Part shown: in pieces, positions 6,138 to 48,827 of the stretch
Position numbering within the stretch: the first letter of the stretch is position 1
Layout: every line of letters begins with the position of its first letter
From: a virus
Lineage: Duplodnaviria; Caudoviricetes
Reading direction: 5' to 3' (one strand)
Virus record (IMG/VR): IMGVR_UViG_3300017788_000018
Span: 842 to 64,841 of that record
DNA: 64,000 bases
The notes under the pieces: model-generated
Told to the model about the DNA's origin: nothing
Databases searched by the model: none
What the model saw: the letters and a program-made list of their open reading frames with translations, nothing else
Translations under genes and position numbers: made by a program

Positions 6138-7049
6138 ATGAGCGAAAATACCAAGAAGCTGAGTGCGTTCGAGGTTACGACCATGATCCAGGAGATGGTC
6201 TCCGAGGAATTGCGAAAGGCACGAGAGGACAGCCGTCCCATCCGTGAGGGCGTCAACCTTGCAACCCTGGACAAGGATGACCTAAACCCCGTTTTCACTT
6301 CGATGCGTCCAGCGGATCAGAAGGCCATGATTCAGTGGATCATGCGCTATTTCTTCACGCCTGCAAAGAAGAACCAGCCCTGGTGGAGCAACAAGATTAC
6401 CCCGGCCAACGTGCTTGCGTTCATTTCGCAGCCTCGTTCGGGCTTCCCTCTGACTCCACGAGAAATGGTGGACGACTGGAAGATCAAGAAGTCCCTCAAG
6501 ACCGATCTGGCAAAGATCAGTGATGCAGACGTGGAGAGCTTCTCTGCCGAGCCCACTGGACCTGTGAACAACACCGGGGAAAAGTCCCTTAAGGACATTG
6601 CCGCCGAGCTTGGAGGCCTTAGCCTTCCATCGATCTCTCAGACCGAGCTTGCTGGTCTTGAGAAGCTCAAGAAGCTCCTGGGTGGAAAGAACCCTATGAG
6701 CATGGACGCAGATGAGCTTGAGAACCTTCTCAAGCATGTCAAGGTTGCTCGTGAGACGACCTCTCACACCTTCGCACAGGACCTCAAGGCGGCTGGTGGT
6801 GATGTGAAGAAGTTTTTCAAGGGGCTTGTGGCCAAGGGCATCATGCAGCCAGTGGACATTTCCCTTCTCAAGCCCCGTGAGATCGAAATGCTCGTGTTCC
6901 TCATGGACAAGCCTGAGGATCAGATTGCACAGTACCTCCGAGGCGATGCCCTCAAGGCCGACAATAAGATTAAGACTTTCCAGGCAGCAGTGGCTCGCAG
7001 CCTCTCGCCGGTTCGTCCTCGTGGTCGTCCCCGTAAGAACCCCGTCTGA
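6138..7049 (+). CDS. Putative transcription regulator: sigma region-4-like HTH plus AT-hook
   Basis: KSLKDIAAELGGLSLPSISQTELAGLEKLKKLL; C-terminal RPRGRPRK. Confidence 0.6.
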   Translation: MSENTKKLSAFEVTTMIQEMVSEELRKAREDSRPIREGVNLATLDKDDLNPVFTSMRPADQKAMIQWIMRYFFTPAKKNQPWWSNKITPANVLAFISQPRSGFPLTPREMVDDWKIKKSLKTDLAKISDADVESFSAEPTGPVNNTGEKSLKDIAAELGGLSLPSISQTELAGLEKLKKLLGGKNPMSMDADELENLLKHVKVARETTSHTFAQDLKAAGGDVKKFFKGLVAKGIMQPVDISLLKPREIEMLVFLMDKPEDQIAQYLRGDALKADNKIKTFQAAVARSLSPVRPRGRPRKNPV

Positions 7050-28276: not shown

Positions 28277-28438
28277 TTATAGGCCTTGTGGCCAGCCTTG
28301 CATCGTGTGTGAAAAAATAGTGTTGTTGAACATCTCTGTGTCTAGAACCATGCCAGTCTGGCCTCTCAGACCCATGTAGTCGGTGTCAACACAAACACTG
28401 TCTCCAACCTGATATTTTCTATACTTGACGTAGTTCAT
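28277..28438 (-). CDS. Family B (KOW/SH3-like) copy 9, degenerate C-terminus
   Basis: YQVGDSV...GLRGQTGMVL; lacks the YxVLL-P motif in frame. Confidence 0.55.
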   Translation of the reverse strand: MNYVKYRKYQVGDSVCVDTDYMGLRGQTGMVLDTEMFNNTIFSHTMQGWPQGL

Positions 28439-28458
28439 GGTGAATTTACAGGTCTCTG

Positions 28459-28743
28459 TTATGGCACTTCCTCGTTCTTTGTGCATTCCACGGAGTCTTT
28501 AGGAGTCAACTCGGTGGCATAGAACGCCACAACCTCTGGTTGTTCTTTGTGTAGTGGAGAGACCAATACACTGTATATGTTGGGAATGTTGTCAACCCAT
28601 GGGAAATTCACCTCAGGGAATTCAACTTCCTCAAGAATGATTCCTGAACTTTCATTGTACTTGCCGAGATAGGTGTTTTCACACCTGACAATCACCAGAT
28701 CGCCAATCTTGAATTGGGTATTCTTCTTTTCTGTTTTCGTCAC
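28459..28743 (-). CDS. Family B copy 8
   Basis: FKIGDLV...GIIL...YSVLVS...EQP. Confidence 0.8.
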   Translation of the reverse strand: MTKTEKKNTQFKIGDLVIVRCENTYLGKYNESSGIILEEVEFPEVNFPWVDNIPNIYSVLVSPLHKEQPEVVAFYATELTPKDSVECTKNEEVP

Positions 28744-28961
28744 CTAACCAACTCCAGTTGCGGTTCAATGGCCCAATAGTACACGGGCTTATCGCTGTCT
28801 GTCCTCGACAAGAGGACGCAATACTCAATCATTGTACCAGCGTATGGCTCTTTCTCTACTTTCAGAATTACGGCTGTGTCCCCGGAAAAGGCCTTGCCGA
28901 ATCTATGGATTTCGTAGAAATACACAAGGTCACCGACCTTGAATTTAGGCTCGGGTCTCAC
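28740..28961 (-). CDS. Family B copy 7
   Basis: FKVGDLV...AVIL...YCVLLS...DKP; GGAGG SD. Confidence 0.8.
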   Translation of the reverse strand: MRPEPKFKVGDLVYFYEIHRFGKAFSGDTAVILKVEKEPYAGTMIEYCVLLSRTDSDKPVYYWAIEPQLELVR

Positions 28962-29160
28962 TGTCCCTCCTTAGAGCAGTTAGAAGGTAGCCCCAGAAAG
29001 CTCGAATGATGGGAGCTTCCTTGTCTGGGTGTGTCACCAACACAAAGTACAGAAAGCCATTGTAGTTGTCCTCAACCTCATCTACCACCACACCTATTGC
29101 GCTGGGATCTCGGTTGATAGACACAAGGTCACCGACCTTGAATTTGAATTCGGGGTTCAT
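28945..29160 (-). CDS. Family B copy 6
   Basis: FKVGDLV...GVVV...YFVLVTHPDKEAP. Confidence 0.8.
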   Translation of the reverse strand: MNPEFKFKVGDLVSINRDPSAIGVVVDEVEDNYNGFLYFVLVTHPDKEAPIIRAFWGYLLTALRRDSETRA

Positions 29161-29240
29161 TCTTCCCTCCCTGTATCAGGGACAAGATCCATAACATCCA
29201 CTTTGCGAGGGGCAGGAGTCTCTTTGGAAAAGAAAGTCAT
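29157..29240 (-). CDS. 27-aa mini-ORF, family B C-terminal remnant
   Basis: MTFFSKETPAPRKVDVMDLVPDTGREE; ATGA overlaps at both ends. Confidence 0.55.
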   Translation of the reverse strand: MTFFSKETPAPRKVDVMDLVPDTGREE

Positions 29241-29494
29241 GGTTTTGTGGTGGTTAGGGTGCGAATAAGGTCGGATCTAAAGAAGGTTTCGAGAAAAGGC
29301 ACCTCTTTGCTTGGCATAGTCAAGAGCACCTCACATTGCTCAAAGCGGAGAGTGCCATCCCTGGCGATTCCGTGGTCACGAACCACCATACCAACGGCCT
29401 CTCTGTAAACAGGAAAGAAGTCGCACAGTGATGGTGCAGGTCTTACGATATCGCCTATTTCTAGCCTGATAGGGTTCTTAGCCTGTGAGGTCAT
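29237..29494 (-). CDS. Family B copy 5
   Basis: LEIGDIV...GMVV...CEVLLTMPSKEVP. Confidence 0.8.
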   Translation of the reverse strand: MTSQAKNPIRLEIGDIVRPAPSLCDFFPVYREAVGMVVRDHGIARDGTLRFEQCEVLLTMPSKEVPFLETFFRSDLIRTLTTTKP

Positions 29495-29706
29495 GTTGGT
29501 ATCAGTATCAGATAGGTGGTGCTGAAATACTCAAGTCTAGGTGTTTCATAAAAGGGATGAGTGACAAGCACCGTGTAGTAGTATTCCTCCATTGCCATTG
29601 GATTGTTCCGTTCGATGCCTACAATCAAACCGGTAGAATTGTGATAATGAAATAGGGCTGTGTTGAAACTAACGAGGTCACCCACCCTGAAACCAGGACC
29701 TGTCAT
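29491..29706 (-). CDS. Family B copy 4
   Basis: FRVGDLV...GLIV...YTVLVTHPFYETP. Confidence 0.8.
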   Translation of the reverse strand: MTGPGFRVGDLVSFNTALFHYHNSTGLIVGIERNNPMAMEEYYYTVLVTHPFYETPRLEYFSTTYLILIPT

Positions 29707-29918
29707 TTCTTCACCAAAATGAGACATACGGCGGGGATGTTCATCATCACAGGTTCCTCTCTGTTAGGATAGGTGGTGAGAATGTCGCAGTGCGGGAGGC
29801 GATCGGCCTCGTGCACGGCCACGACAATAGCCTTTGCCCCTCGGAGGCCAGTGAAGTACATCATACTTGTCGGTTCAGCAAACTCCACAATGTCGCCAAC
29901 TTGAAAATTGTTCTTCAT
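29703..29918 (-). CDS. Family B copy 3
   Basis: FQVGDIV...AIVV...CDILTTYPNREEP. Confidence 0.8.
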   Translation of the reverse strand: MKNNFQVGDIVEFAEPTSMMYFTGLRGAKAIVVAVHEADRLPHCDILTTYPNREEPVMMNIPAVCLILVKK

Positions 29919-30199
29919 TCTGGCAACCATCGGCTAAGTTCAAATTCCCAATAGCTGTGCACAACAGGAGCTTCTAAGTCTGGAATGGACATTAGTATCC
30001 TATAGTTCCACCGCTGCCCTCGAAATTCGGCCCAATCTGATTTCCGACAAGTACAGGTAAGCACCATTCCCCTGACCCCTTCGTGTCTTAGGATGCTGCC
30101 CATGTTAAGGGCAGACTTAAAGTCTAGGCTCAGGATTACCATGTCCCCAACCTGGAACTTTTGCTTCTTCGGCGTAGAGGAGTTTGCATTTTCAGTCAT
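29915..30199 (-). CDS. Family B copy 2b
   Basis: FQVGDMV...GMVL...YRILMSIPDLEAP. Confidence 0.8.
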   Translation of the reverse strand: MTENANSSTPKKQKFQVGDMVILSLDFKSALNMGSILRHEGVRGMVLTCTCRKSDWAEFRGQRWNYRILMSIPDLEAPVVHSYWEFELSRWLPE

Positions 30200-32674: not shown

Positions 32675-32713
32675 GGTCAGACCTATAGATATGGGAGAAA
32701 TCCCAACAATACC

Positions 32714-32758
32714 AGTATAACCCATTTCCGAGCCACTTTAAACCCTTATTTTGCAAGG
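32714..32758 (-). promoter_or_regulatory. sigma70-type early promoter
   Basis: CCTTGCA-AAATAAGGG-TTTAAA-N17-TATACT. Confidence 0.8.
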
Positions 32759-32779
32759 TAAATTGGCTATTCATCAACG

Positions 32780-33049
32780 CTATATTTGTCGTTGAAGAAT
32801 TGCCTTGATTCCGTATCTAGCTGTTTGTCCAGACTTGGGTTGCGAACAAGGTTCTCTTTGTGTTGATTGAGAAGAGTCGCCAGGGCGGGGCCTTCCTTTG
32901 CCGTGGCAGGAGCAGGCACCAGGAAGGAGGGCAAGGGCAAGGTTTTGACTCCTTGCCATTGGAGCATTGATTGCTGCCTCTGGAAGGCTCTCTGTGTCAC
33001 TGTTCATCGCCTCCCTGAGGGAGAACCTGGGCTTTCGTTGAATCGTCAT
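32780..33049 (-). CDS. Hypothetical protein
   Basis: ATG 9 nt after TATTTA; the overlapping 32767-33000 frame is an alternative. Confidence 0.45.
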   Translation of the reverse strand: MTIQRKPRFSLREAMNSDTESLPEAAINAPMARSQNLALALLPGACSCHGKGRPRPGDSSQSTQREPCSQPKSGQTARYGIKAILQRQI

Positions 33050-34776: not shown

Positions 34777-35334
34777 TTACCGGTATGGATTGAAGTTGGG
34801 ATCGCCCAAGGTAACAATTTCAGGCATGTCCGTGTCGTCGGCCCAAATCCAACCGAGGGAGCCATTCCTCATAACCTGAATTTCGATGCCGTGGTCGTCC
34901 TCGGGCATAATCAGAGAGCGAGTAACAAGCAGGGGCTCAGAGGAGCAGTCAACATCTTCACTATATTGGCAGAGATATTTCATGTGAAGGTTGAAATAGC
35001 TAATACCCTCAGATATGGGCCACAGAGGCCACTTTGCAAAGAAAGCCGAAATTTGGGCACCGAACTGGTCCTCGGGCACAGTTAGAAATCCAATTTCCCG
35101 TATCCATGGTTTCCGTAGATTATCAGGCGACAGCGGCCACCGGATCATGGAACCAGGCGGGATCTGAGGACAGAGAGACACGACTCCCGTCTCTAGATCG
35201 AGGAGATTGAGAGTCTCGGCACGATCGAGAAAGCGGGGAATGTCCTCGGGGAAATTTTCTGAGGCCTGCTGGGCTTCCCAGATAATTTGTTCCCTGTATT
35301 TTGGATTGAATGGCGAGCGGTCGGAGGGGTGCAT
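34777..35334 (-). CDS. Paralog family C copy 1
   Basis: NFPEDIPRFL...PPGSMI...WPLW...RNGSLGW...MPEIVTLGDP. Confidence 0.75.
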   Translation of the reverse strand: MHPSDRSPFNPKYREQIIWEAQQASENFPEDIPRFLDRAETLNLLDLETGVVSLCPQIPPGSMIRWPLSPDNLRKPWIREIGFLTVPEDQFGAQISAFFAKWPLWPISEGISYFNLHMKYLCQYSEDVDCSSEPLLVTRSLIMPEDDHGIEIQVMRNGSLGWIWADDTDMPEIVTLGDPNFNPYR

Positions 35335-35370
35335 GGTCGAACCGTGTCCTTTGTTGCTCTCTATGGGAAT

Positions 35371-35413
35371 CAGAAAAGACCAAGGCTCCCTCCGTGGCGG
35401 GAGGGAGCCTTGG
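35371..35413 (-). terminator. Intrinsic terminator
   Basis: 14-bp stem CCAAGGCTCCCTCC/GGAGGGAGCCTTGG followed by TCTTTTCT. Confidence 0.85.
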
Positions 35414-35419
35414 GAGCTT

Positions 35420-36211
35420 TTACTCCTCAAACTTGTTGTAAGAGGCGTACTCCTCAAGTGCATCCACCTGAACGAAACGCAAGGTCTCACGCTCCGAGAG
35501 AACCTCATCCTTCTCAAGGAGAACAGCGGTCAGCTTGCCGCCGAACACGCAGCCGGTGTCGATTCCGTGGCAGGCACCACGGGAGTTGGAACCGTTCCAG
35601 GTCTTAGGCTCACCACGACCCACAACGTTGTGTCCGAAGAGAACGTCCTCGGGACCATCGTAGACTTCTGCCCAATAGACAGACTGAGGTGGCTGGCGGA
35701 AACCCGGCATAAGGAGCGGAAGCATCATATGCTTCGACTCGCTGATGAACCGGACCATGGTGAGGATCTCCAGGGGCAGAGTCTCAGGGTCACGGCCGGG
35801 AGTCATGCCAGCATGAACGATGATGGCATTGTTCTCAGGAAGGCGGATAAGCCCCGGAAGCTCCGAAAGCCAGTTAAGGTCATCCTGACTCAAATTCTGA
35901 ATCGTGTACTCCTGATCCAGATCGGGCTTCATGGGATTGCGGTAATTCTTGTCCCTACGGGCACGAGCAAGGTGACGAGCCCTGCGAAGGAGCTTGCCCT
36001 CATGGTTTCCTAGGACGCACTCACCATGCTCCCGAACGAAACGAACCACGCCCGCACTGTCGGGGCCTCGATCCACAAGGTCACCGGCCACGATGAGACG
36101 GTCTGCACCCGGATCGAATTGCACCTTATCGAGCAAGGCCTTAAGCTCCGTAAGGCAGCCATGCACATCGCCCACGACGATCGTTCGCTTGAATTGCGTA
36201 TTTTTGTCCAT
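35420..36211 (-). CDS. PPP/ApaH-like metallophosphoesterase
   Basis: GDVHG, GDLVDRG, GNHE, VHAG, FGH, IDTGC. Confidence 0.92.
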   Translation of the reverse strand: MDKNTQFKRTIVVGDVHGCLTELKALLDKVQFDPGADRLIVAGDLVDRGPDSAGVVRFVREHGECVLGNHEGKLLRRARHLARARRDKNYRNPMKPDLDQEYTIQNLSQDDLNWLSELPGLIRLPENNAIIVHAGMTPGRDPETLPLEILTMVRFISESKHMMLPLLMPGFRQPPQSVYWAEVYDGPEDVLFGHNVVGRGEPKTWNGSNSRGACHGIDTGCVFGGKLTAVLLEKDEVLSERETLRFVQVDALEEYASYNKFEE

Positions 36212-42912: not shown

Positions 42913-43755
42913 TCAAACGGATTGGATGATGTCGAAACGGAGGAGCAATACAAGTCTTTCTCTTTCCGAAAGCTTGTCCAAGGCATTTTTCACTAGGTCG
43001 CTTACGGCGGCCCCAGAAAAGAGCATTTCTGTGTTGAGTTCTCGCTCATCTGGAATGGTCTCGGCCAGGGTAGGCTCTCCGTGCTTGGATGGTTCATCAA
43101 AGGAAACGATATTCTTTGTCTGGCCAGCCCTGGTAATGGACTGCATCATCTTCTCGGAAAACTCCGAGGACTTATAGTCTGCTAGTACGCCGCCCAGCGT
43201 TCTGTTCTCAGCGGTGAGCTTTTTGGCTAGCTTGCCCTTTGCAATCCTGACATGGCTGGGTACATGAATCATGGGCTCGACATTGAGCAGGAAGCTGTTA
43301 ACGGACTGTCGAATCCACCAAGTGGCATAGGTTGAGAAACGAAAGCCAAGCTCAGGCTTGAAACCCTCGATAGCTGACATTAGACCAATGAGACCTTCCT
43401 GCATGAGGTCTTCCTTGAGGAAAAGGAAGGAACGATCATTGGCATAGAATTTTGTGACAATGTAGGAGACGAGAGGGGTGTTCCTTTTGATCAACTCATT
43501 GCGAGTCTTCACAAGCCGATTGGCCGAGTATTCGAAGAACAGTGGATCAATTTTCTGCTTGGTTGCAGGACCGGCCTGGGTGGCCTCTGCATTGAATTCG
43601 GCCACAATCTCACTGATTTCGACTCTCTCCTCTGAGGAGAGACCATTTAGATTGTCAGCAGGTGGTGACTTAAGAGGACCGGCACGTTCGATATGGGGCG
43701 TAGGAACATGAACAGACGAACTAGAAACTTTCTGGGTGGTTAGGTGGGCTTTCAT
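42913..43755 (-). CDS. sigma-70 family factor lacking region 4.2
   Basis: RNELIKRNTPLV, DLMQEGLIGL, GFRFSTYATWWIRQ, IHVP, VSFD, LSERERLVLLLRF then stop. Confidence 0.9.
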   Translation of the reverse strand: MKAHLTTQKVSSSSVHVPTPHIERAGPLKSPPADNLNGLSSEERVEISEIVAEFNAEATQAGPATKQKIDPLFFEYSANRLVKTRNELIKRNTPLVSYIVTKFYANDRSFLFLKEDLMQEGLIGLMSAIEGFKPELGFRFSTYATWWIRQSVNSFLLNVEPMIHVPSHVRIAKGKLAKKLTAENRTLGGVLADYKSSEFSEKMMQSITRAGQTKNIVSFDEPSKHGEPTLAETIPDERELNTEMLFSGAAVSDLVKNALDKLSERERLVLLLRFDIIQSV

Positions 43756-44308
43756 TTGTGAATTCCTTGGGAAGCGGCAGCTTTACCGGCGTAATCGCAA
43801 TGTGATTGGTCGAGGGGGTAACGACCAGACTCGACGTGGGTCGATCGGGCTCGGCAGGGGCCTGTGCCTTTTTACTGGTGCGGCGTGAGGCCCATGCTAT
43901 GTATGTCATAGCATACTTTGACTTCACTTTCTCGTAGTTTCGACGGTTGACTTTGAGATTAAGCCTAAAACACAATCGAAGACCTGTCCGCCAAGCCTCA
44001 AGTTCTTCCTCAATGCGTGCAATGCTTACTGGTTGGGTACCTCCTGTAAACTCATCAAACACGGCTTCGTATTTTGAAGAGTAAGCTCGGTTGTTCTGAA
44101 ACATGAGCATATGACCTAGCTCATGCAGGAAGACATAAAAAAGCTCCTCTTTGTTGGTCCTCTCCTTGAGGCGCACGCTCTTACGAGCCCAATCAGCCCA
44201 ATCATTCTTTGCTTTTGCACGGTAAATGACAGACCATTTTTTGGAAGCAGCGTATTCCTCAAGCAATTCCAGTTGTTTTTTCCAGTTGATTTTCCGATTT
44301 CGAGCCAT
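43721..44308 (-). CDS. HExxH zinc metallopeptidase (ImmA/IrrE-like)
   Basis: FLHELGH and downstream EEELEAW. Confidence 0.7.
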   Translation of the reverse strand: MARNRKINWKKQLELLEEYAASKKWSVIYRAKAKNDWADWARKSVRLKERTNKEELFYVFLHELGHMLMFQNNRAYSSKYEAVFDEFTGGTQPVSIARIEEELEAWRTGLRLCFRLNLKVNRRNYEKVKSKYAMTYIAWASRRTSKKAQAPAEPDRPTSSLVVTPSTNHIAITPVKLPLPKEFTNESPPNHPESF

Positions 44309-44394
44309 ACAACACCGAACCTGCTATAGGTAAGTGTATCACAGCAGACAAAATCGCCTATTGTATTTTTCTCAACCACACCATTTTGCGAGCC

Positions 44395-45336
44395 CTAGGT
44401 TTTTCGCCTCAAAAGAAGCCTGAGACTATCGGGCTCATACACGCAAGAAAGCCGATTTCCGTAAGAAAATGGGAAACTTAGAGAGTCTCCATCGGGGCTT
44501 ACCAGACCTTCTCTCATGTAGGAGCTAATCCAGATCGGGGCATAGCTATTCGCAAATCCCTCAACAAGGTCGGTGGAGCGAAACTGCGTGGCGACGCCGG
44601 GATGAGTGAATCTCTCTCTGACCCGCCACTGCATACGATTGTCCAAGTCGGGTTGGACATAGCCTCCTGCCGAGCGCATCGCCGCATGAGAGCCCAGAGG
44701 GGTACAGAGCCAAATGCCGCTGCTGATGTGAGCGGTGCCCTTTCCATCGTGGCCGATCCAATACTTGGAAACAGCGGCAGGGTGAGCAGCCGATACCAGA
44801 ATGTCGTTGACAGCCACGCCTTCCTTGAAAAGCTCTGTGTCCCTGTAGACGTAGTAACGGATGACGCCCAGGCTCTCGAAGGCGAAGGAGCTTAGATTTC
44901 CACTTAGAAGGCCCTGCTTGCAGTAGTGTTCAAATTCCGTCACGCTTCCGCAGGAATAGAAACCCACCGAGGTCAGTGGCGAGGAGTTGATTGAAATGAT
45001 GGGCTGACCAAACCTGAGGTGTCGGGCTCCCCACAAATAGGTGCCGTCACCACCGAAGGCGATAACGAGGTCGGCCATCTGGTACTCAACAAGTAGTTCG
45101 GGCTCTGAGAGATTTTCTCTACAGAAGTAATCCACCGTGATGAATGGCTCGCGAGCCTCAAGAATGGCCCGGAGACGACCTAGGTCTCGGGTGTGCTCAT
45201 TATGAGCCAGCAGCATCGTGGCGGTCTCAGGCACCTGAGCATGAATCTTATCCTGCACAAGAGAATTCTCGTGCAGAATTGCCATCTCGTACTGAGAGCG
45301 TTTCGCAAGCAACGCCACACGCATCTTTGTTTGCAT
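44395..45336 (-). CDS. nadK: NAD kinase
   Basis: FGGDGT, VNDI, SSGIWLCTPLGS, RSAGG, DG. Confidence 0.88.
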   Translation of the reverse strand: MQTKMRVALLAKRSQYEMAILHENSLVQDKIHAQVPETATMLLAHNEHTRDLGRLRAILEAREPFITVDYFCRENLSEPELLVEYQMADLVIAFGGDGTYLWGARHLRFGQPIISINSSPLTSVGFYSCGSVTEFEHYCKQGLLSGNLSSFAFESLGVIRYYVYRDTELFKEGVAVNDILVSAAHPAAVSKYWIGHDGKGTAHISSGIWLCTPLGSHAAMRSAGGYVQPDLDNRMQWRVRERFTHPGVATQFRSTDLVEGFANSYAPIWISSYMREGLVSPDGDSLSFPFSYGNRLSCVYEPDSLRLLLRRKT

Positions 45337-45429
45337 AACCGGTATCCGATATCCAGGAGTTGAACCTGGCACGCTAAGCTTATAAGGCTCGGCAGCCCAA
45401 CCGGGGTCTCATATCGGGCTTTCTTTCTA

Positions 45430-45462
45430 ACTATAGCACACCCTACTTGAGAGGATAAACGG
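45430..45462 (-). promoter_or_regulatory. Possible early promoter
   Basis: TTTATC-N18-TATAGT with extended TG. Confidence 0.55.
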
Positions 45463-45468
45463 TTATCA

Positions 45469-45678
45469 TCAAGGAATAGAAATGCACCGATAGTCCTCAT
45501 CCTCGAAGGCACAAGCCTCAAAGGTTGAGAACGAACCCCAAATATCGCTTACCTGAAGCGTCCAGGCAAGATCCCAGGCTGAGTCGGATATCGGAGCGAC
45601 CGGTTGGTACCCGCAAGAAACCTGATTGCAGGCACCCAATAGGAATACCGGCAAAAGAATCCAGGTCTTACGGGACAT
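45469..45678 (-). CDS. Small lipoprotein
   Basis: MSRKTWILLPVFLLGAC lipobox. Confidence 0.6.
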   Translation of the reverse strand: MSRKTWILLPVFLLGACNQVSCGYQPVAPISDSAWDLAWTLQVSDIWGSFSTFEACAFEDEDYRCISIP

Positions 45679-45679
45679 G

Positions 45680-46027
45680 TTACTCGGTCTCAACATACTC
45701 AGTTAGAGCCAGTGGCAAAGCTGCACAGAAGGCCCGTGCATCGTCCGAGGGCTCAAGGGCAACTGCCGTGTAGGCCATGCCAAGGTCAGGCTCTTGGAAA
45801 GAGGCCCATCGAAACTTCTTCTCGATAGCCTGCTGCATGATCAGCACCAGAGCCTTCTCATTCTCAACAGAGAGAAAGCAAAGGTGGTTGCTCCTGGAGA
45901 ACCACTCGGCTTCAAGCTCAGAGTGTCGAGCAATGAATTCACGAAACGCATGACAGGCCTGCACAGCCTGCGAACCAGGCGGAAAATCCCTCCGTGAGAT
46001 CAGATAGAGCTTTTGGTTGAAACGCAT
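45680..46027 (-). CDS. Peptidyl-tRNA hydrolase 2 (PTH2)-like protein
   Basis: KLYLISRRD...GSQAVQACHA...W...FQEPD...TAVALEP...LPL. Confidence 0.8.
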   Translation of the reverse strand: MRFNQKLYLISRRDFPPGSQAVQACHAFREFIARHSELEAEWFSRSNHLCFLSVENEKALVLIMQQAIEKKFRWASFQEPDLGMAYTAVALEPSDDARAFCAALPLALTEYVETE

Positions 46028-46062
46028 TGAGCATTTCCCTTCAAAAGGGGTAAATGTTGCTA

Positions 46063-46344
46063 TCAGAGGTAATAACCGAAACGTCTGAGGTGTTCGTTCA
46101 CTTCCTCAAGGGAATAGCCCATTGAGGTTTTGCCATTGTCGTCAACTGTTTTCATTGCGGCCAACATTTCCCTTAGATACATAAGGTCGGAGCAGGCCGA
46201 GGCCACATCGACAACCTTTTGATAGTTGAGGGAAACTGCTGCAAAGGCAATCTGAACAGCTAAGTCCTTGTCGAGATTGGAGAGAACGACACTCAGCGCA
46301 TCTTTCGATTTCTTTATCTGGGAAGCAGCATCATCAGTTGCCAT
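46063..46344 (-). CDS. Hypothetical protein
   Basis: ATG 6 nt after TATTTA. Confidence 0.65.
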   Translation of the reverse strand: MATDDAASQIKKSKDALSVVLSNLDKDLAVQIAFAAVSLNYQKVVDVASACSDLMYLREMLAAMKTVDDNGKTSMGYSLEEVNEHLRRFGYYL

Positions 46345-46646
46345 ATTGCCTAAATATGGCGATGAAAATGAGACTTGTGTCTCATGTTAAACCTGGCGTG
46401 GGTTTGCGGCCAAGTGAAGTCGAACACCTATAGCCGCAAACCCACTTCCCCTAATGGCATTCCCGATATGCGTTGGGGCGTGTGTGATGGCTGGTCTGAT
46501 TTGCAGTCAGGGATTTCATCGCACGACATATCAGTATTTAGAGCCTAGACACCGTAGAGACAATACATGCGACTCTAAAAAACATGTATTGTTTGACTTA
46601 CCCCTACAGAAATTTGCGTTGCGGTCGTTGGGCTCGATCGCGCAAC
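46340..46646 (+). ncRNA. Candidate structured non-coding RNA or cis element
   Basis: At least six consecutive stem-loops; G-U pairs form on the + strand; no convincing ORF. Confidence 0.5.
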
Positions 46647-46661
46647 ATGGAAGCTTTGATA

Positions 46662-47366
46662 TCAGGTGAAATCGGGAGCAACCTCAACGCTCCCCCGACC
46701 GTACATTTCAAATTCGCTTTCTCGCCAGCTAAGCTCCTCAACGAGGACCTTCTTAGCAGCACCAGAAACATTCTTGTTGGAAACGGCGTCCTTAAGGACT
46801 GCCAGGAGAATGGCCTGGTGGCCTCCTCGCAGTGTTTCATCGCTCAACTTGAATGCGTGGGGATCCGAGGCAAGTCGGCCCGTGGCAATCTTTCGCCCAA
46901 TGTCACGGGAGAAGCGATCACCCTTGTTGACGGCGTAGCCTCCCATCAATTGGACCTTGCTGGGATGACAAACGGCCATCTGGTACTCCAGGATATTCTG
47001 GTCACCATTGATTCGGGTGGCCAGAGTGATCACTCGATCCGTACCCTGAGCATAGGTGGGCCAAGAGGCCCGGTTCTCCATCGTGAACCGGGAAAGGTCT
47101 GCATGCTGCGTGATGTAGAGGAAATGCGTTCGTCCAACCGAGGGGCTGACGGCCGAGGTCCAACCCTCCCTCCGAGAGGGGAGATTGGGTTCGATGGCCT
47201 CACCAGGAGCCCTGCGCTTTGTGACCGGAAGCGACTTGGACTTGCTGCCCATCTTCTTGGGCGCAACAGGCTCCTTGGTCTTTACTGCCTTGGACACAGC
47301 CTTGGTGACTGCCCTGACAGCCTTCAGGGCCTTCTTTTCCTTCTTATCCTTGTTCTTCTTGGACAT
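46662..47366 (-). CDS. Protein with basic N-terminal tail and C...DxFxRxxGRxIA domain
   Basis: AVCHP...GDRFSRDIGRKIATGRL. Confidence 0.65.
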   Translation of the reverse strand: MSKKNKDKKEKKALKAVRAVTKAVSKAVKTKEPVAPKKMGSKSKSLPVTKRRAPGEAIEPNLPSRREGWTSAVSPSVGRTHFLYITQHADLSRFTMENRASWPTYAQGTDRVITLATRINGDQNILEYQMAVCHPSKVQLMGGYAVNKGDRFSRDIGRKIATGRLASDPHAFKLSDETLRGGHQAILLAVLKDAVSNKNVSGAAKKVLVEELSWRESEFEMYGRGSVEVAPDFT

Positions 47367-47439
47367 GACTTTTTGTGACTTTCTCTTTAGGAGGACTGTT
47401 TGACACTTGCGGAAGTTTGCGTGCTCCTTGGATTACCTT

Positions 47440-47468
47440 ACCCTAGCACACTCACTTTACCCTTTAAT
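47440..47468 (-). promoter_or_regulatory. sigma70-type early promoter
   Basis: ATTAAA-N17-TAGGGT with extended TG. Confidence 0.6.
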
Positions 47469-47474
47469 TGAATT

Positions 47475-47509
47475 CGGGGCGGTCCCGAAAGACCGCCCCG
47501 TTTTCTTGT
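47475..47509. terminator. GC-rich hairpin, probable terminator
   Basis: CGGGGCGGTC-ccgaaa-GACCGCCCCG; the T run is on the + strand. Confidence 0.7.
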
Positions 47510-47540
47510 TACTTTACCCTAGCCGGTAAATCAACTCCTA

Positions 47541-48827
47541 TCAGCGACGAGCACCTCGGGTGCGGGGAGCCGGGGCTCCACCAGCCGCCCCGGCTGCTGC
47601 TGCCTGGGCAGCGGCCTTCGTTGCCGCCTTGGCCTCTGCCGAACGGCGCTCGGGCTTCGGAAGGTCTGCCACCGATGCGCCCGTGGCTGCACGAACGATC
47701 AGGGGCATCACATACTGGTGAATCATTGCCTGATTCTTGCTCGACTTCTGGATGTGCTGCCAGAGCGTCATGCGGGGCTCGGGAGCCAGGTCGTACATGC
47801 AAAGAGCAAGCTCGATTGCCTGGTCCTGGTCGAGAACGTTCTTCTTGATCCAGTCGCCGAGCTTGGCCGTGATCTCCACGAAAATCTCGTTGGAGGTCTT
47901 GCCGAGCTTCACAAGGGCCTTGTCCCAATCCGCAAGGATCTCGGCGGCCGAAACCTGACGGTCACGCTCGGCACAGAACTTCTTGAAGAGACCAGCGGCG
48001 TTGATTCCGACGAAAGCGCCCGTGAGAACGTAGAACATCGGATCTTCCACGTTGTCATAGAGCTTGTGCGAGCGAAGCTCCTCGTCAAGGGCCACCCAGG
48101 CACGACGATCGGGATACTTCTTGTTCGACTCGAACGGACCCTCGTGCTCGATCTGAGCCTCGTTCTGACGGCAGAATTCCACCAGGGCTCCATCGCAACG
48201 GGTCGAAATGTAGTCGATCCACTCCGCACGGGAAGGGTTCAACTCCACGATCGCACCACGGCTTACCTCGGCAGGATCGGACTGGTTCACCGTGTAAGCG
48301 TCGCCGATGTTCTCAGCGATGGCGATGAACGTCTCGTCGTGGAGACGGTTGCCGTAGAAGGCCTTGGAATCGGCAAGCTGGAACACGGCCTGCTTGACGC
48401 CCTCAAGCGCCCGGTTGCGCTCGTCAAGGAAGAGAACCACCGGAAACTCGCATGCCTGAATCAGCCAGTCAACCGGCTTGAACATCGTGGACTTGGAGTT
48501 GCCGTCGAGCATGGGGAGACCGATGATATCGCCCTCCGTCATCTGCGAAAGACGGCGCTCGATCACGGGCACGCCCATTTCGTACTTCCATTCCGTGACC
48601 TGATTCTTCGCACGAAGGTACGGAAGCGACCCACCAAGGGCCTTCACCATACGTGCGCAATACGAGGGATCCTTGTAGGCCTCGCAACGTCGGGTGCTGG
48701 CACCCTGGTAAATGCCCTCCGACTTACCCACGGCGTGACGCCCACGCACCACGAGCGTGCGATCGGGAGAGAGCATCGTCATAAGACGCTGCATGTTCTT
48801 CATGGAAACGGGAAGGGAAAGACTCAT
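47541..48827 (-). CDS. MoxR/dynein-related AAA+ ATPase
   Basis: GRHAVGKS (Walker A), GDIIGLP, LFLDERNRA (Walker B), DPAEVSR; AAGGAG SD. Confidence 0.88.
   Translation of the reverse strand: MSLSLPVSMKNMQRLMTMLSPDRTLVVRGRHAVGKSEGIYQGASTRRCEAYKDPSYCARMVKALGGSLPYLRAKNQVTEWKYEMGVPVIERRLSQMTEGDIIGLPMLDGNSKSTMFKPVDWLIQACEFPVVLFLDERNRALEGVKQAVFQLADSKAFYGNRLHDETFIAIAENIGDAYTVNQSDPAEVSRGAIVELNPSRAEWIDYISTRCDGALVEFCRQNEAQIEHEGPFESNKKYPDRRAWVALDEELRSHKLYDNVEDPMFYVLTGAFVGINAAGLFKKFCAERDRQVSAAEILADWDKALVKLGKTSNEIFVEITAKLGDWIKKNVLDQDQAIELALCMYDLAPEPRMTLWQHIQKSSKNQAMIHQYVMPLIVRAATGASVADLPKPERRSAEAKAATKAAAQAAAAGAAGGAPAPRTRGARR

Follow-up and report, generated by a model that had tools for sequence, protein, structure and literature searches.

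The DNA considered here is a stretch of 64,000 nucleotides (nt), hereafter the window, which makes up nearly all of a 64.8-kb IMG/VR virus record (IMGVR_UViG_3300017788_000018) with an estimated completeness of 14%, corresponding to a genome of ~460 kb. Near-identical DNA was found in runs labelled as freshwater and freshwater-sediment metagenomes. Around the element under study all genes lie on the minus strand, in the order 532-amino-acid (aa) gene, ATPase, 234-aa gene, spacer, 93-aa gene, PTH2-like gene, tRNA-Ile(UAU), NAD-kinase-like gene, metalloprotease-like gene and sigma factor. The spacer between the 234-aa and 93-aa genes very probably holds a conserved structured RNA read in the sense of these genes. 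The family to which it belongs is carried by a subclade of very large (~350-460 kb) freshwater phages, and the copy in the window was established as a divergent member of it.

Relatives of the locus and covariation in the spacer

Relatives of the locus were collected through the ATPase. Its homologues numbered 427 at E <= 0.001, and an alignment of 26 of them yielded 42 IMG/VR loci and 71 metagenome-contig loci, together 113 (L002-L114). No match was returned by blastn of positions 45600-47500 against 50,697 phage records, no relative by scans of IMG/VR with the 234-aa, 93-aa or ATPase protein used singly, and only the query itself by a word-based search with the 234-aa protein. As judged by tblastn, the nearer loci keep the order 532-aa gene, ATPase, 234-aa homologue, long spacer and 93-aa homologue, with the metalloprotease-like gene and the sigma factor later; the spacer 3' of the 234-aa homologue measures 150-656 nt and is long in every such locus. 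Relatives found in this way hold a conserved RNA of ~210-220 nt at the same position.

Aligned with one another, the L003, L004, L013 and L016 spacers show compensatory changes (TTAACCCTT/AAGGGTTAA vs TTAGCCCTT/AAGGGCTAA vs TTAGTCCTT/AAGGACTAA). RNAalifold on eight relatives predicted 51 base pairs, 21 of them with double changes. A covariance model, R1, was built from these eight sequences, R3 was built from all 14 distinct relatives, and R2 models the 5' domain; the window was included in none of the three, and E-values from these models are rough throughout, the calibration having been shortened. R1 matched 19 of the 113 loci at E <= 1.1e-6, always on the strand of the ATPase, and the matches included lineages that had previously been left unaligned (L047, L050, L055, L063, L044 and the L007 group).

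Of 690 cells in the 14 distinct sequences, 95.8% pair; shuffling lowers this share to 76.8% and sliding the partners to 34-47%. Changes on both sides occur in 40 of the 51 pairs. These counts are inflated for the modelled helices by the fitting of alignments A6 and A9 to the model; none of 500 shuffles reached any of these measures. Covariation among collected homologues, named as a check in a preliminary description of the window made from its letters alone, was therefore found. The covarying pairs number 7 of 7 in helix P1, 10 of 11 in P2 and 13 of 15 in P3 (helices as in Table 1). The crossing pairing Pk2 (GCCCY/RGGG in the relatives), absent from the fitted model, is paired in 91.2% of cells and changes on both sides in three of its five pairs, which bears out the earlier suspicion of a pseudoknot. 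Besides the inflation by fitting, what weighs against the structure is that S1 and S2 are mostly invariant in the main group (1 of 9 and 1 of 11 pairs covary), so that their support comes mainly from by-eye comparison of three lineages. The strand asymmetry and the changes from lineage to lineage are too large to be explained by model-fitting alone.

This strand asymmetry decides among several readings of the spacer. The preliminary description had placed the element on the plus strand, antisense to both neighbours, and held that its mismatches resolve as G-U only there. The plus strand does fold equally well (-112 kcal/mol, z -4.0), and one stem, that within the P2 insert, is C-A on the minus strand and G-U on the plus strand; it is alone in this. 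All model matches lie on the gene strand, however, in 19 of 19 loci and in the window, and G-U cells number 119 and A-C cells 10 (of 690), giving 95.8% sense and 80.0% antisense pairing. The S1 and P2 helices of the window hold five G-U pairs (3 + 2) that exist on the minus strand only and become A-C on the plus strand, and the closing GURG/CUGC of P3 in the relatives carries G-U pairs on the gene strand. The best plus-strand match of the family model is a partial one of 1.6 bits, to the palindromic 13-bp hairpin, and the antisense fold of the L044 spacer is 29 kcal/mol weaker than its sense fold (-71 kcal/mol, z -3.0, vs -100 kcal/mol, z -5.2). A plus-strand antisense RNA is thus very unlikely. 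We regard as just as slight the chance that the site acts at the DNA level, as a replication origin or packaging site (also suggested earlier) or as protein-binding palindromes. Several inverted repeats are perfect, and the palindrome around ATATTTA upstream of the 93-aa gene could be an operator; DNA hairpins, however, gain nothing from G-T, whereas 17% of the paired cells are G-U, on one strand only. Because the covariation relies on G-U on one strand, it indicates an RNA rather than a DNA hairpin; the pseudoknotted pairings covary too, the site shows no iterons or tandem repeats (two weak direct repeats only) and its composition does not shift. The prospect that either plus-strand open reading frame (ORF), 46454-46669 (71 aa) or 46375-46548 (57 aa), represents a genuine small gene is close to negligible. 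Both frames are open, but neither has a Pfam or PHROG match, tblastn against the 113 loci gave a best E of 0.42 and no match at the homologous place, and on the antisense strand of the relatives no more than 35-63 codons run without a stop, in stretches that are not conserved. ORF 46454-46669, whose conservation as a protein had been named as evidence that would speak against an RNA, showed none among these loci. With conserved, covarying structure, no conserved ORF and no Rfam match, the earlier proposal of a new phage non-coding RNA holds, on the opposite strand from the one proposed.

The RNA-bearing phages share 53-72% ATPase identity, the closest relative among the loci being L044 (72%). 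Among the ATPase homologues, proteins P0003-P0007, at 70-76% identity, belong to closer relatives in other assemblies. The RNA was single-copy in two related virus records searched whole. R1 found no match in four more distant huge-phage records (183-320 kb), and because of this absence the family is taken to mark a subclade. A pattern search of IMG/VR (GGGAAGTRG-N35-60-CTGCGAGCT) returned 30 stretches, five of them known; the 25 new ones were rejected as chance matches, none giving an R1 match at E <= 0.01.

Architecture of the RNA and the copy in the window

The features of the locus are collected in Table 1. From 5' to 3' the family order is S1/S2, P1, the junction AAUA, P2, the crossing Pk2, an invariant GGGAAGU and P3, with two pseudoknots. 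The full RNA has a length of ~212 nt in L003 and, as drawn for the window, ~221 nt. The 5' arm of P1 lies in the apical loop of S2, forming the first pseudoknot with S1/S2, and the junction AAUAC follows. P2 encloses a 54-nt insert with its own hairpin (36 nt in the model). In the family S1 has 9 bp and S2 10-11 bp; the L003-like group, L044 and the window have wholly different S1/S2 sequences of the same two-tier design, with bulges of 8, 7 and 8 nt, respectively. Sequence conservation reaches ~40 nt upstream of the R1 model. Small helices of an earlier model (a hairpin of 4 bp within the loop of P1, GGGG/CCCU around a 3-nt loop, and AAG/CUU) were replaced by S1 and Pk2, which use the same nucleotides and form more pairs.

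Table 1. Positions of the RNA, its helices, inverted repeats and neighbouring genes in the window.
Feature	Positions	Strand	Description or basis
RNA core	46389-46609, read 46609 -> 46389	-	~221 nt; models from relatives and constrained fold
S1	46601-46609 with 46552-46560	-	9 bp, 3 G-U
S2 (perfect 10-bp hairpin of the preliminary description)	46583-46591 with 46561-46569	-	9 bp; 10 bp as repeat
S1/S2 extended two-tier hairpin	46552-46609	-	8-nt bulge 46592-46600 on 5' strand
P1 (TTTAGAG/CTCTAAA of the preliminary description)	UUUAGAG 46573-46579 with CUCUAAA 46537-46543	-	repeat I9 and model alignment
P2 (GATATG/CATATC of the preliminary description plus two U-G)	46526-46534 CUGAUAUGU with 46463-46471 GCAUAUCGG	-	9 bp including 2 U-G
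Pk2 ("alternative hairpin" of the preliminary description)	CCCC 46475-46478 with GGGG 46448-46451	-	crosses P2 3' arm; second pseudoknot
Conserved single-stranded motif GGGAAGUGG, leading into P3	46442-46450	-	homologous place in relatives
P3 hairpin	46433-46445 with 46398-46410	-	perfect 13 bp, 22-nt loop; repeat I1
Weak terminator-like 3' end	46368-46385	-	7-bp hairpin AUGAGAC/GUCUCAU, then UUUCAU; below terminator-scan criteria
Palindrome/hairpin over 93-aa start codon	46340-46360	-	8 bp, with ATATTTA 46351-46357; repeat I6
Stretch from 234-aa stop codon to S1	46610-46661	-	52 nt, hairpin ~46618-46646; outside conserved core
Inverted repeat I6	46340-46347/46353-46360		8 bp
Inverted repeat	46365-46374/46379-46388		10 nt, 90%
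Inverted repeat I1	46398-46410/46433-46445		13 bp, perfect
Inverted repeat	46560-46569/46583-46592		10 bp, perfect
ATPase	47541-48827	-	PHROG 1297
234-aa gene, upstream of RNA	46662-47366	-	lysine-rich tail and conserved core of ~110 aa
Spacer between 234-aa and 93-aa genes		-	317 nt
93-aa gene, downstream of RNA	46063-46344	-	conserved small helical protein (alignment A7)
PTH2-like peptidyl-tRNA hydrolase	45680-46027	-	
tRNA-Ile(UAU)	45345-45417	-	downstream member of conserved module; ARAGORN, only gene it found in the window

With filters switched off, the best R1 match in a 5-kb search was 46389-46577 on the minus strand, at full model length (16.6 bits, E 8e-4). In 98.8 kb, again without filters, the window scored E 0.016, and the 11 matches at E <= 0.05 were 10 known members and the window. 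R3 found the same interval at 20.7 bits (E 0.0054 in 44 kb), the next match reaching 9.7 bits. When the 51 modelled pairs of alignment A9 were read in the window copy, 31 were Watson-Crick, seven G-U, none A-C, three other and 10 gapped. The copy has P1, P2 and P3 in family order, the junctions AAUA and GAAU and the motif GGGAAGU; S1/S2, P1 within the loop and Pk2 can all be drawn in it; and folding it into the constrained family structure costs ~3 kcal/mol (-103.9 kcal/mol vs a minimum free energy of -107.0 kcal/mol). Its strand and position are those of the family, with the 234-aa homologue upstream and the 93-aa homologue and tRNA-Ile(UAU) downstream. Counting against membership, R1 and R3 miss the copy with default filters, and the top R2 match, although at the right place (46526-46614 on the minus strand), scored only 8.4 bits (E 1.1); R2 gave 17.4 bits in L044 and 24.7 bits in L063. 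Membership was regarded as established from the combination of score and strand, the place between the same pair of genes, the order of the helices and the motifs that are conserved.

The stems listed in the preliminary description are present in the spacer: the repeats were located, the GATATG/CATATC pairing and the stems nested in it appear in the folds, and the hairpin at ~46618-46646 forms in the minus-strand fold. The competing hairpin described at 46449-46478 is also real and crosses the GATATG/CATATC stem. For the 322-nt stretch the minimum free energy was -112 kcal/mol on the plus strand (z -4.01) and -107 kcal/mol on the minus strand (z -4.28), and none of 100 shuffles was as good on either strand, in agreement with the earlier prediction. 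Across 48 control strand-windows of the same length taken from the window, z averaged -0.79 (SD 1.13; minimum -3.91). The element stands at the extreme of this range, and folding energy alone would neither single out the spacer nor tell the strands apart. Among the controls, 35300-35621 and 32700-33021, both on the minus strand, gave z -3.9 and -3.3 (20 shuffles each).

ARAGORN placed no tRNA or tmRNA in the spacer, in line with the preliminary description, and an Rfam search at gathering scores placed no family there. Over the whole window Rfam 15 likewise produced nothing at gathering scores. With the cut-off relaxed to E <= 10 for 46000-47000, the sole hit was a miRNA hairpin model; its 21 bits fall well short of the gathering score, 90, and the hit was judged spurious. 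In strong members of the family (six loci, L003 among them) Rfam matched only the nearby tRNAs. An intrinsic-terminator scan of 45000-48000 placed none inside the spacer. Contigs of four DNA runs covering 45600-47500, three of them partially, showed a sole difference at 46998, outside the element, and thus provided no covariation. The P3 13-mer, GGGAAGTRG (two occurrences in the window) and ATATTTA (four matches) are each no commoner in the window than chance; an explanation by a repeated motif or general promoter was therefore rejected.

Genomic context of the RNA

Among the loci with a 234-aa homologue, 13 reach far enough downstream, and all 13 carry the RNA behind it; in three more the sequence stops too early. 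S1 of the L003-like group starts 5-6 nt past the stop codon of this homologue, too close for the RNA to have a promoter of its own. In L063, L005 and the L007 group the RNA is preceded, at a distance of 20-55 nt, by the end of a tRNA; in the L007 group the RNA follows tRNAs, and tblastn found no 234-aa homologue in the locus. The 93-aa-like gene lies ~20-60 nt 3' of the RNA in 11 of the 15 distinct members, the window included, and the order RNA, 93-aa-like gene, tRNA-Ile(UAU) is kept in L003, L004, L007, L013, L016, L046, L047, L048, L050 and L063. Unrelated genes follow the RNA in the other four: a 116-aa gene in L044, where the 93-aa-like gene stands in the same gene string 1.7 kb downstream, an 87-aa gene in L055, and a gene of HNH type by eye in L005 and L052. 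In L005, L052 and L055, where the locus showed no 93-aa homologue, the RNA is retained and scores 135-170 bits. In the place of the 93-aa gene, L005 (8726-9034) and L052 (5222-5590) carry a gene with the pattern CxxC...HH...CxxCH, HNH-endonuclease-like by eye, which may have arrived by mobile insertion.

Behind the RNA, L044 and L005 have a clear intrinsic terminator, and in L052 a tRNA-like sequence, recognized by eye and not by ARAGORN, begins ~2 nt past the conserved tail. Of the 11 sequences in which the 93-aa-like gene follows directly, 10 have the heptamer ATATTTA at 3-14 nt before its start codon (TATTTA in L003). A hairpin over the start codon occurs in the window and in L003, L013, L016 and L048, and its sequence changes in a complementary manner from one lineage to the next. 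The ATATTTA palindrome could be an operator around a -10-like promoter element for an mRNA with little or no leader, or it could be an RNA hairpin.

The core of the 234-aa protein (residues ~73-174) weakly resembles the double-stranded RNA-binding domain (dsRBD) and the uS5 N-domain in many of the top 50 rows of VIA-align, at Z 4-5.3. Its nearest named cluster in the protein atlas is "dsRBD fold-containing" (score 0.80), and Foldseek with this protein returned nothing. These likenesses are a weak hint that the predicted product could bind the RNA. The AF2 model of the 93-aa protein has four helices (pLDDT 80.5); the protein had no PDB match at E <= 0.001 and no Pfam or PHROG match, and its atlas leads were all below 0.8.

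Further observations concern the neighbourhood. Beside the RNA, 42913-46027 on the minus strand forms a transcription- and translation-related cluster of sigma-70-like, metalloprotease-like, NAD-kinase-like and PTH2-like peptidyl-tRNA hydrolase genes. Because tRNA-Ile(UAU) overlaps the 5' end of the longest NAD-kinase-like ORF (44395-45372), the true start of the latter is placed further downstream. In L044 a tRNA with anticodon CUA (6803-6873; "Pyl" by ARAGORN, amber suppressor type) stands behind the PTH2-like gene, in the position that tRNA-Ile(UAU) takes in the window; it could point to reassignment of a stop codon in that phage. Between the ATPase and the 234-aa gene, 47475-47500 is a perfect 10-bp G+C-rich hairpin with a T run (TTTTCTTGTT) on the plus strand. 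It resembles an intrinsic terminator facing against the genes and might act as an antisense stop or, through the opposite A run, in both directions. Elsewhere in the window, 28277-29930 has neither a long ORF nor a tandem repeat and holds at least seven short minus-strand ORFs (69-94 aa) that overlap or stand close together, as is typical where small early genes are clustered.

Function of the RNA and comparison with known systems

Taken as a whole, the explanation that we prefer, with about an even chance of being right, is a sense structured RNA that is processed from a tRNA-operon transcript and acts in trans; the stand-alone, processed-RNA mechanism in itself we place a little short of even. 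The RNA would be co-transcribed in an operon with the 234-aa gene, the 93-aa gene and the tRNA genes and would be released as a discrete, stable molecule, its 5' end defined by the stop-codon region before it or by a preceding tRNA, and its 3' end by the terminator-like hairpin or a tRNA that follows. It would then act in trans in the tRNA and translation module of the phage, probably bound to protein, the dsRBD-like product of the upstream gene being a candidate partner. A discrete RNA is favoured because of the terminators in L044 and L005, the tRNA-like sequence in L052, the upstream tRNAs and the retention of the RNA without a 93-aa homologue. Several points speak against this explanation. 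The L003-like group has no terminator between the RNA and the 93-aa-like gene; a directly following 93-aa-like gene with a start-codon hairpin fits a cis-acting leader equally well; none of the eight listed runs with near-identical DNA is an RNA run; and, for the candidate protein partner, a VIA-align Z of ~5 is below the level that the tool treats as meaningful, VIA-align and the protein atlas both warning of chance values.

A cis-acting leader, riboswitch-like or protein-binding, in which a sensor fold and the downstream hairpins gate the 93-aa gene and the tRNA and translation genes, is a possible but less probable account. The 93-aa-like gene is directly downstream in 11 of the 15 members and 1.7 kb downstream in L044, candidate platforms exist as a terminator or terminator-like hairpin (window, L044, L005) or as a start-codon hairpin (window, L003, L013, L016, L048), and invariant junction nucleotides lie by covarying stems and two pseudoknots, a combination typical of ligand-binding RNAs. 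By inspection, however, no alternative pairing links the sensor to a platform, the downstream genes are unrelated in L044, L055 and L005/L052, with the tRNA-like sequence coming next in L052, the start-codon palindrome with its ATATTTA 3-14 nt before the ATG could equally be a promoter or operator in DNA, and the context suggests no ligand. Quite unlikely is an ordinary spacer or 3' untranslated region, the hairpins of which do no more than terminate the preceding mRNA or stabilise it. This gene string commonly has long spacers (174 nt from the ATPase to the 234-aa gene), the L003-like RNA begins so close to the upstream stop codon that it is at least co-transcribed, and one of the 48 control windows folds nearly as well; stabiliser hairpins, however, would not keep invariant motifs, two pseudoknots and a fixed helix order at 53-72% ATPase identity, and in the L007 group the RNA stands behind tRNAs. 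It is also improbable, though less so, that the RNA is the core of a ribonucleoprotein or a catalytic RNA acting on translation, in tRNA sensing or processing or in reprogramming host translation together with the dsRBD-like protein. The tRNA-Ile(UAU) of the module and the peptidyl-tRNA hydrolase of the window are the context for such a role, and if this is true the RNA represents a new functional class. A T-box-like tRNA sensor, raised by the tRNA-Ile neighbour, the junction AUA and a UGGA in two main-group loops, was rejected: no Rfam T-box match was obtained, the discriminator A of the tRNA-Ile in the window would need UGGU, and the window copy is without UUGGA loops. A likeness to P4 of RNase P (GGGAAGU... 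/ ...GCUUAU) had no Rfam support and was dropped.

The RNA family is uncatalogued, supported by covariation, doubly pseudoknotted and found in huge freshwater phages. A literature search, which did not extend to the alignments of PMC10690425, gave no description of this RNA. That 2023 survey reports 8495 structured "DNAVirus_X" motifs from IMG/VR of 29-151 nt (median 65). They share with the present RNA the IMG/VR intergenic source and the covariation evidence and differ in being shorter; part of the RNA may be among them. Huge phages carry many tRNA and translation genes whose regulation is largely unknown, and the RNA sits inside that module. Being kept down to 53% ATPase identity, it is a testable candidate for a new functional RNA, which might be a stable RNA, part of a ribonucleoprotein or a sensor. 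With the strand corrected, probes, reporters and transcript searches must target the minus strand.

Among known systems, riboswitches and protein-binding leaders resemble the RNA in their invariant junctions, covarying stems, pseudoknots, recurring downstream gene and terminator or start-codon hairpin; it differs from riboswitches in that it matches no known aptamer class in Rfam, no switch pairing was found and four of the 15 members have unrelated genes downstream. Species 1 and 2 of phage T4 (rnaC and rnaD) are stable non-tRNA RNAs of unknown function that are co-transcribed with tRNAs and cut from the same precursor; compared by description only, they are shorter than this RNA and are not known to be pseudoknotted. 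ROOL and GOLLD, both of which have families in Rfam, are structured multi-helix RNAs of phages and prophages, ~500-800 nt long and of unknown function, that lie beside tRNA genes on the same strand. The present RNA differs from them in its length of ~220 nt and in matching no Rfam family at gathering scores (the window and six loci) or at E <= 10 (the element), and resembles them, as far as such descriptions can be compared, as a many-helix phage RNA beside tRNA genes on the same strand.

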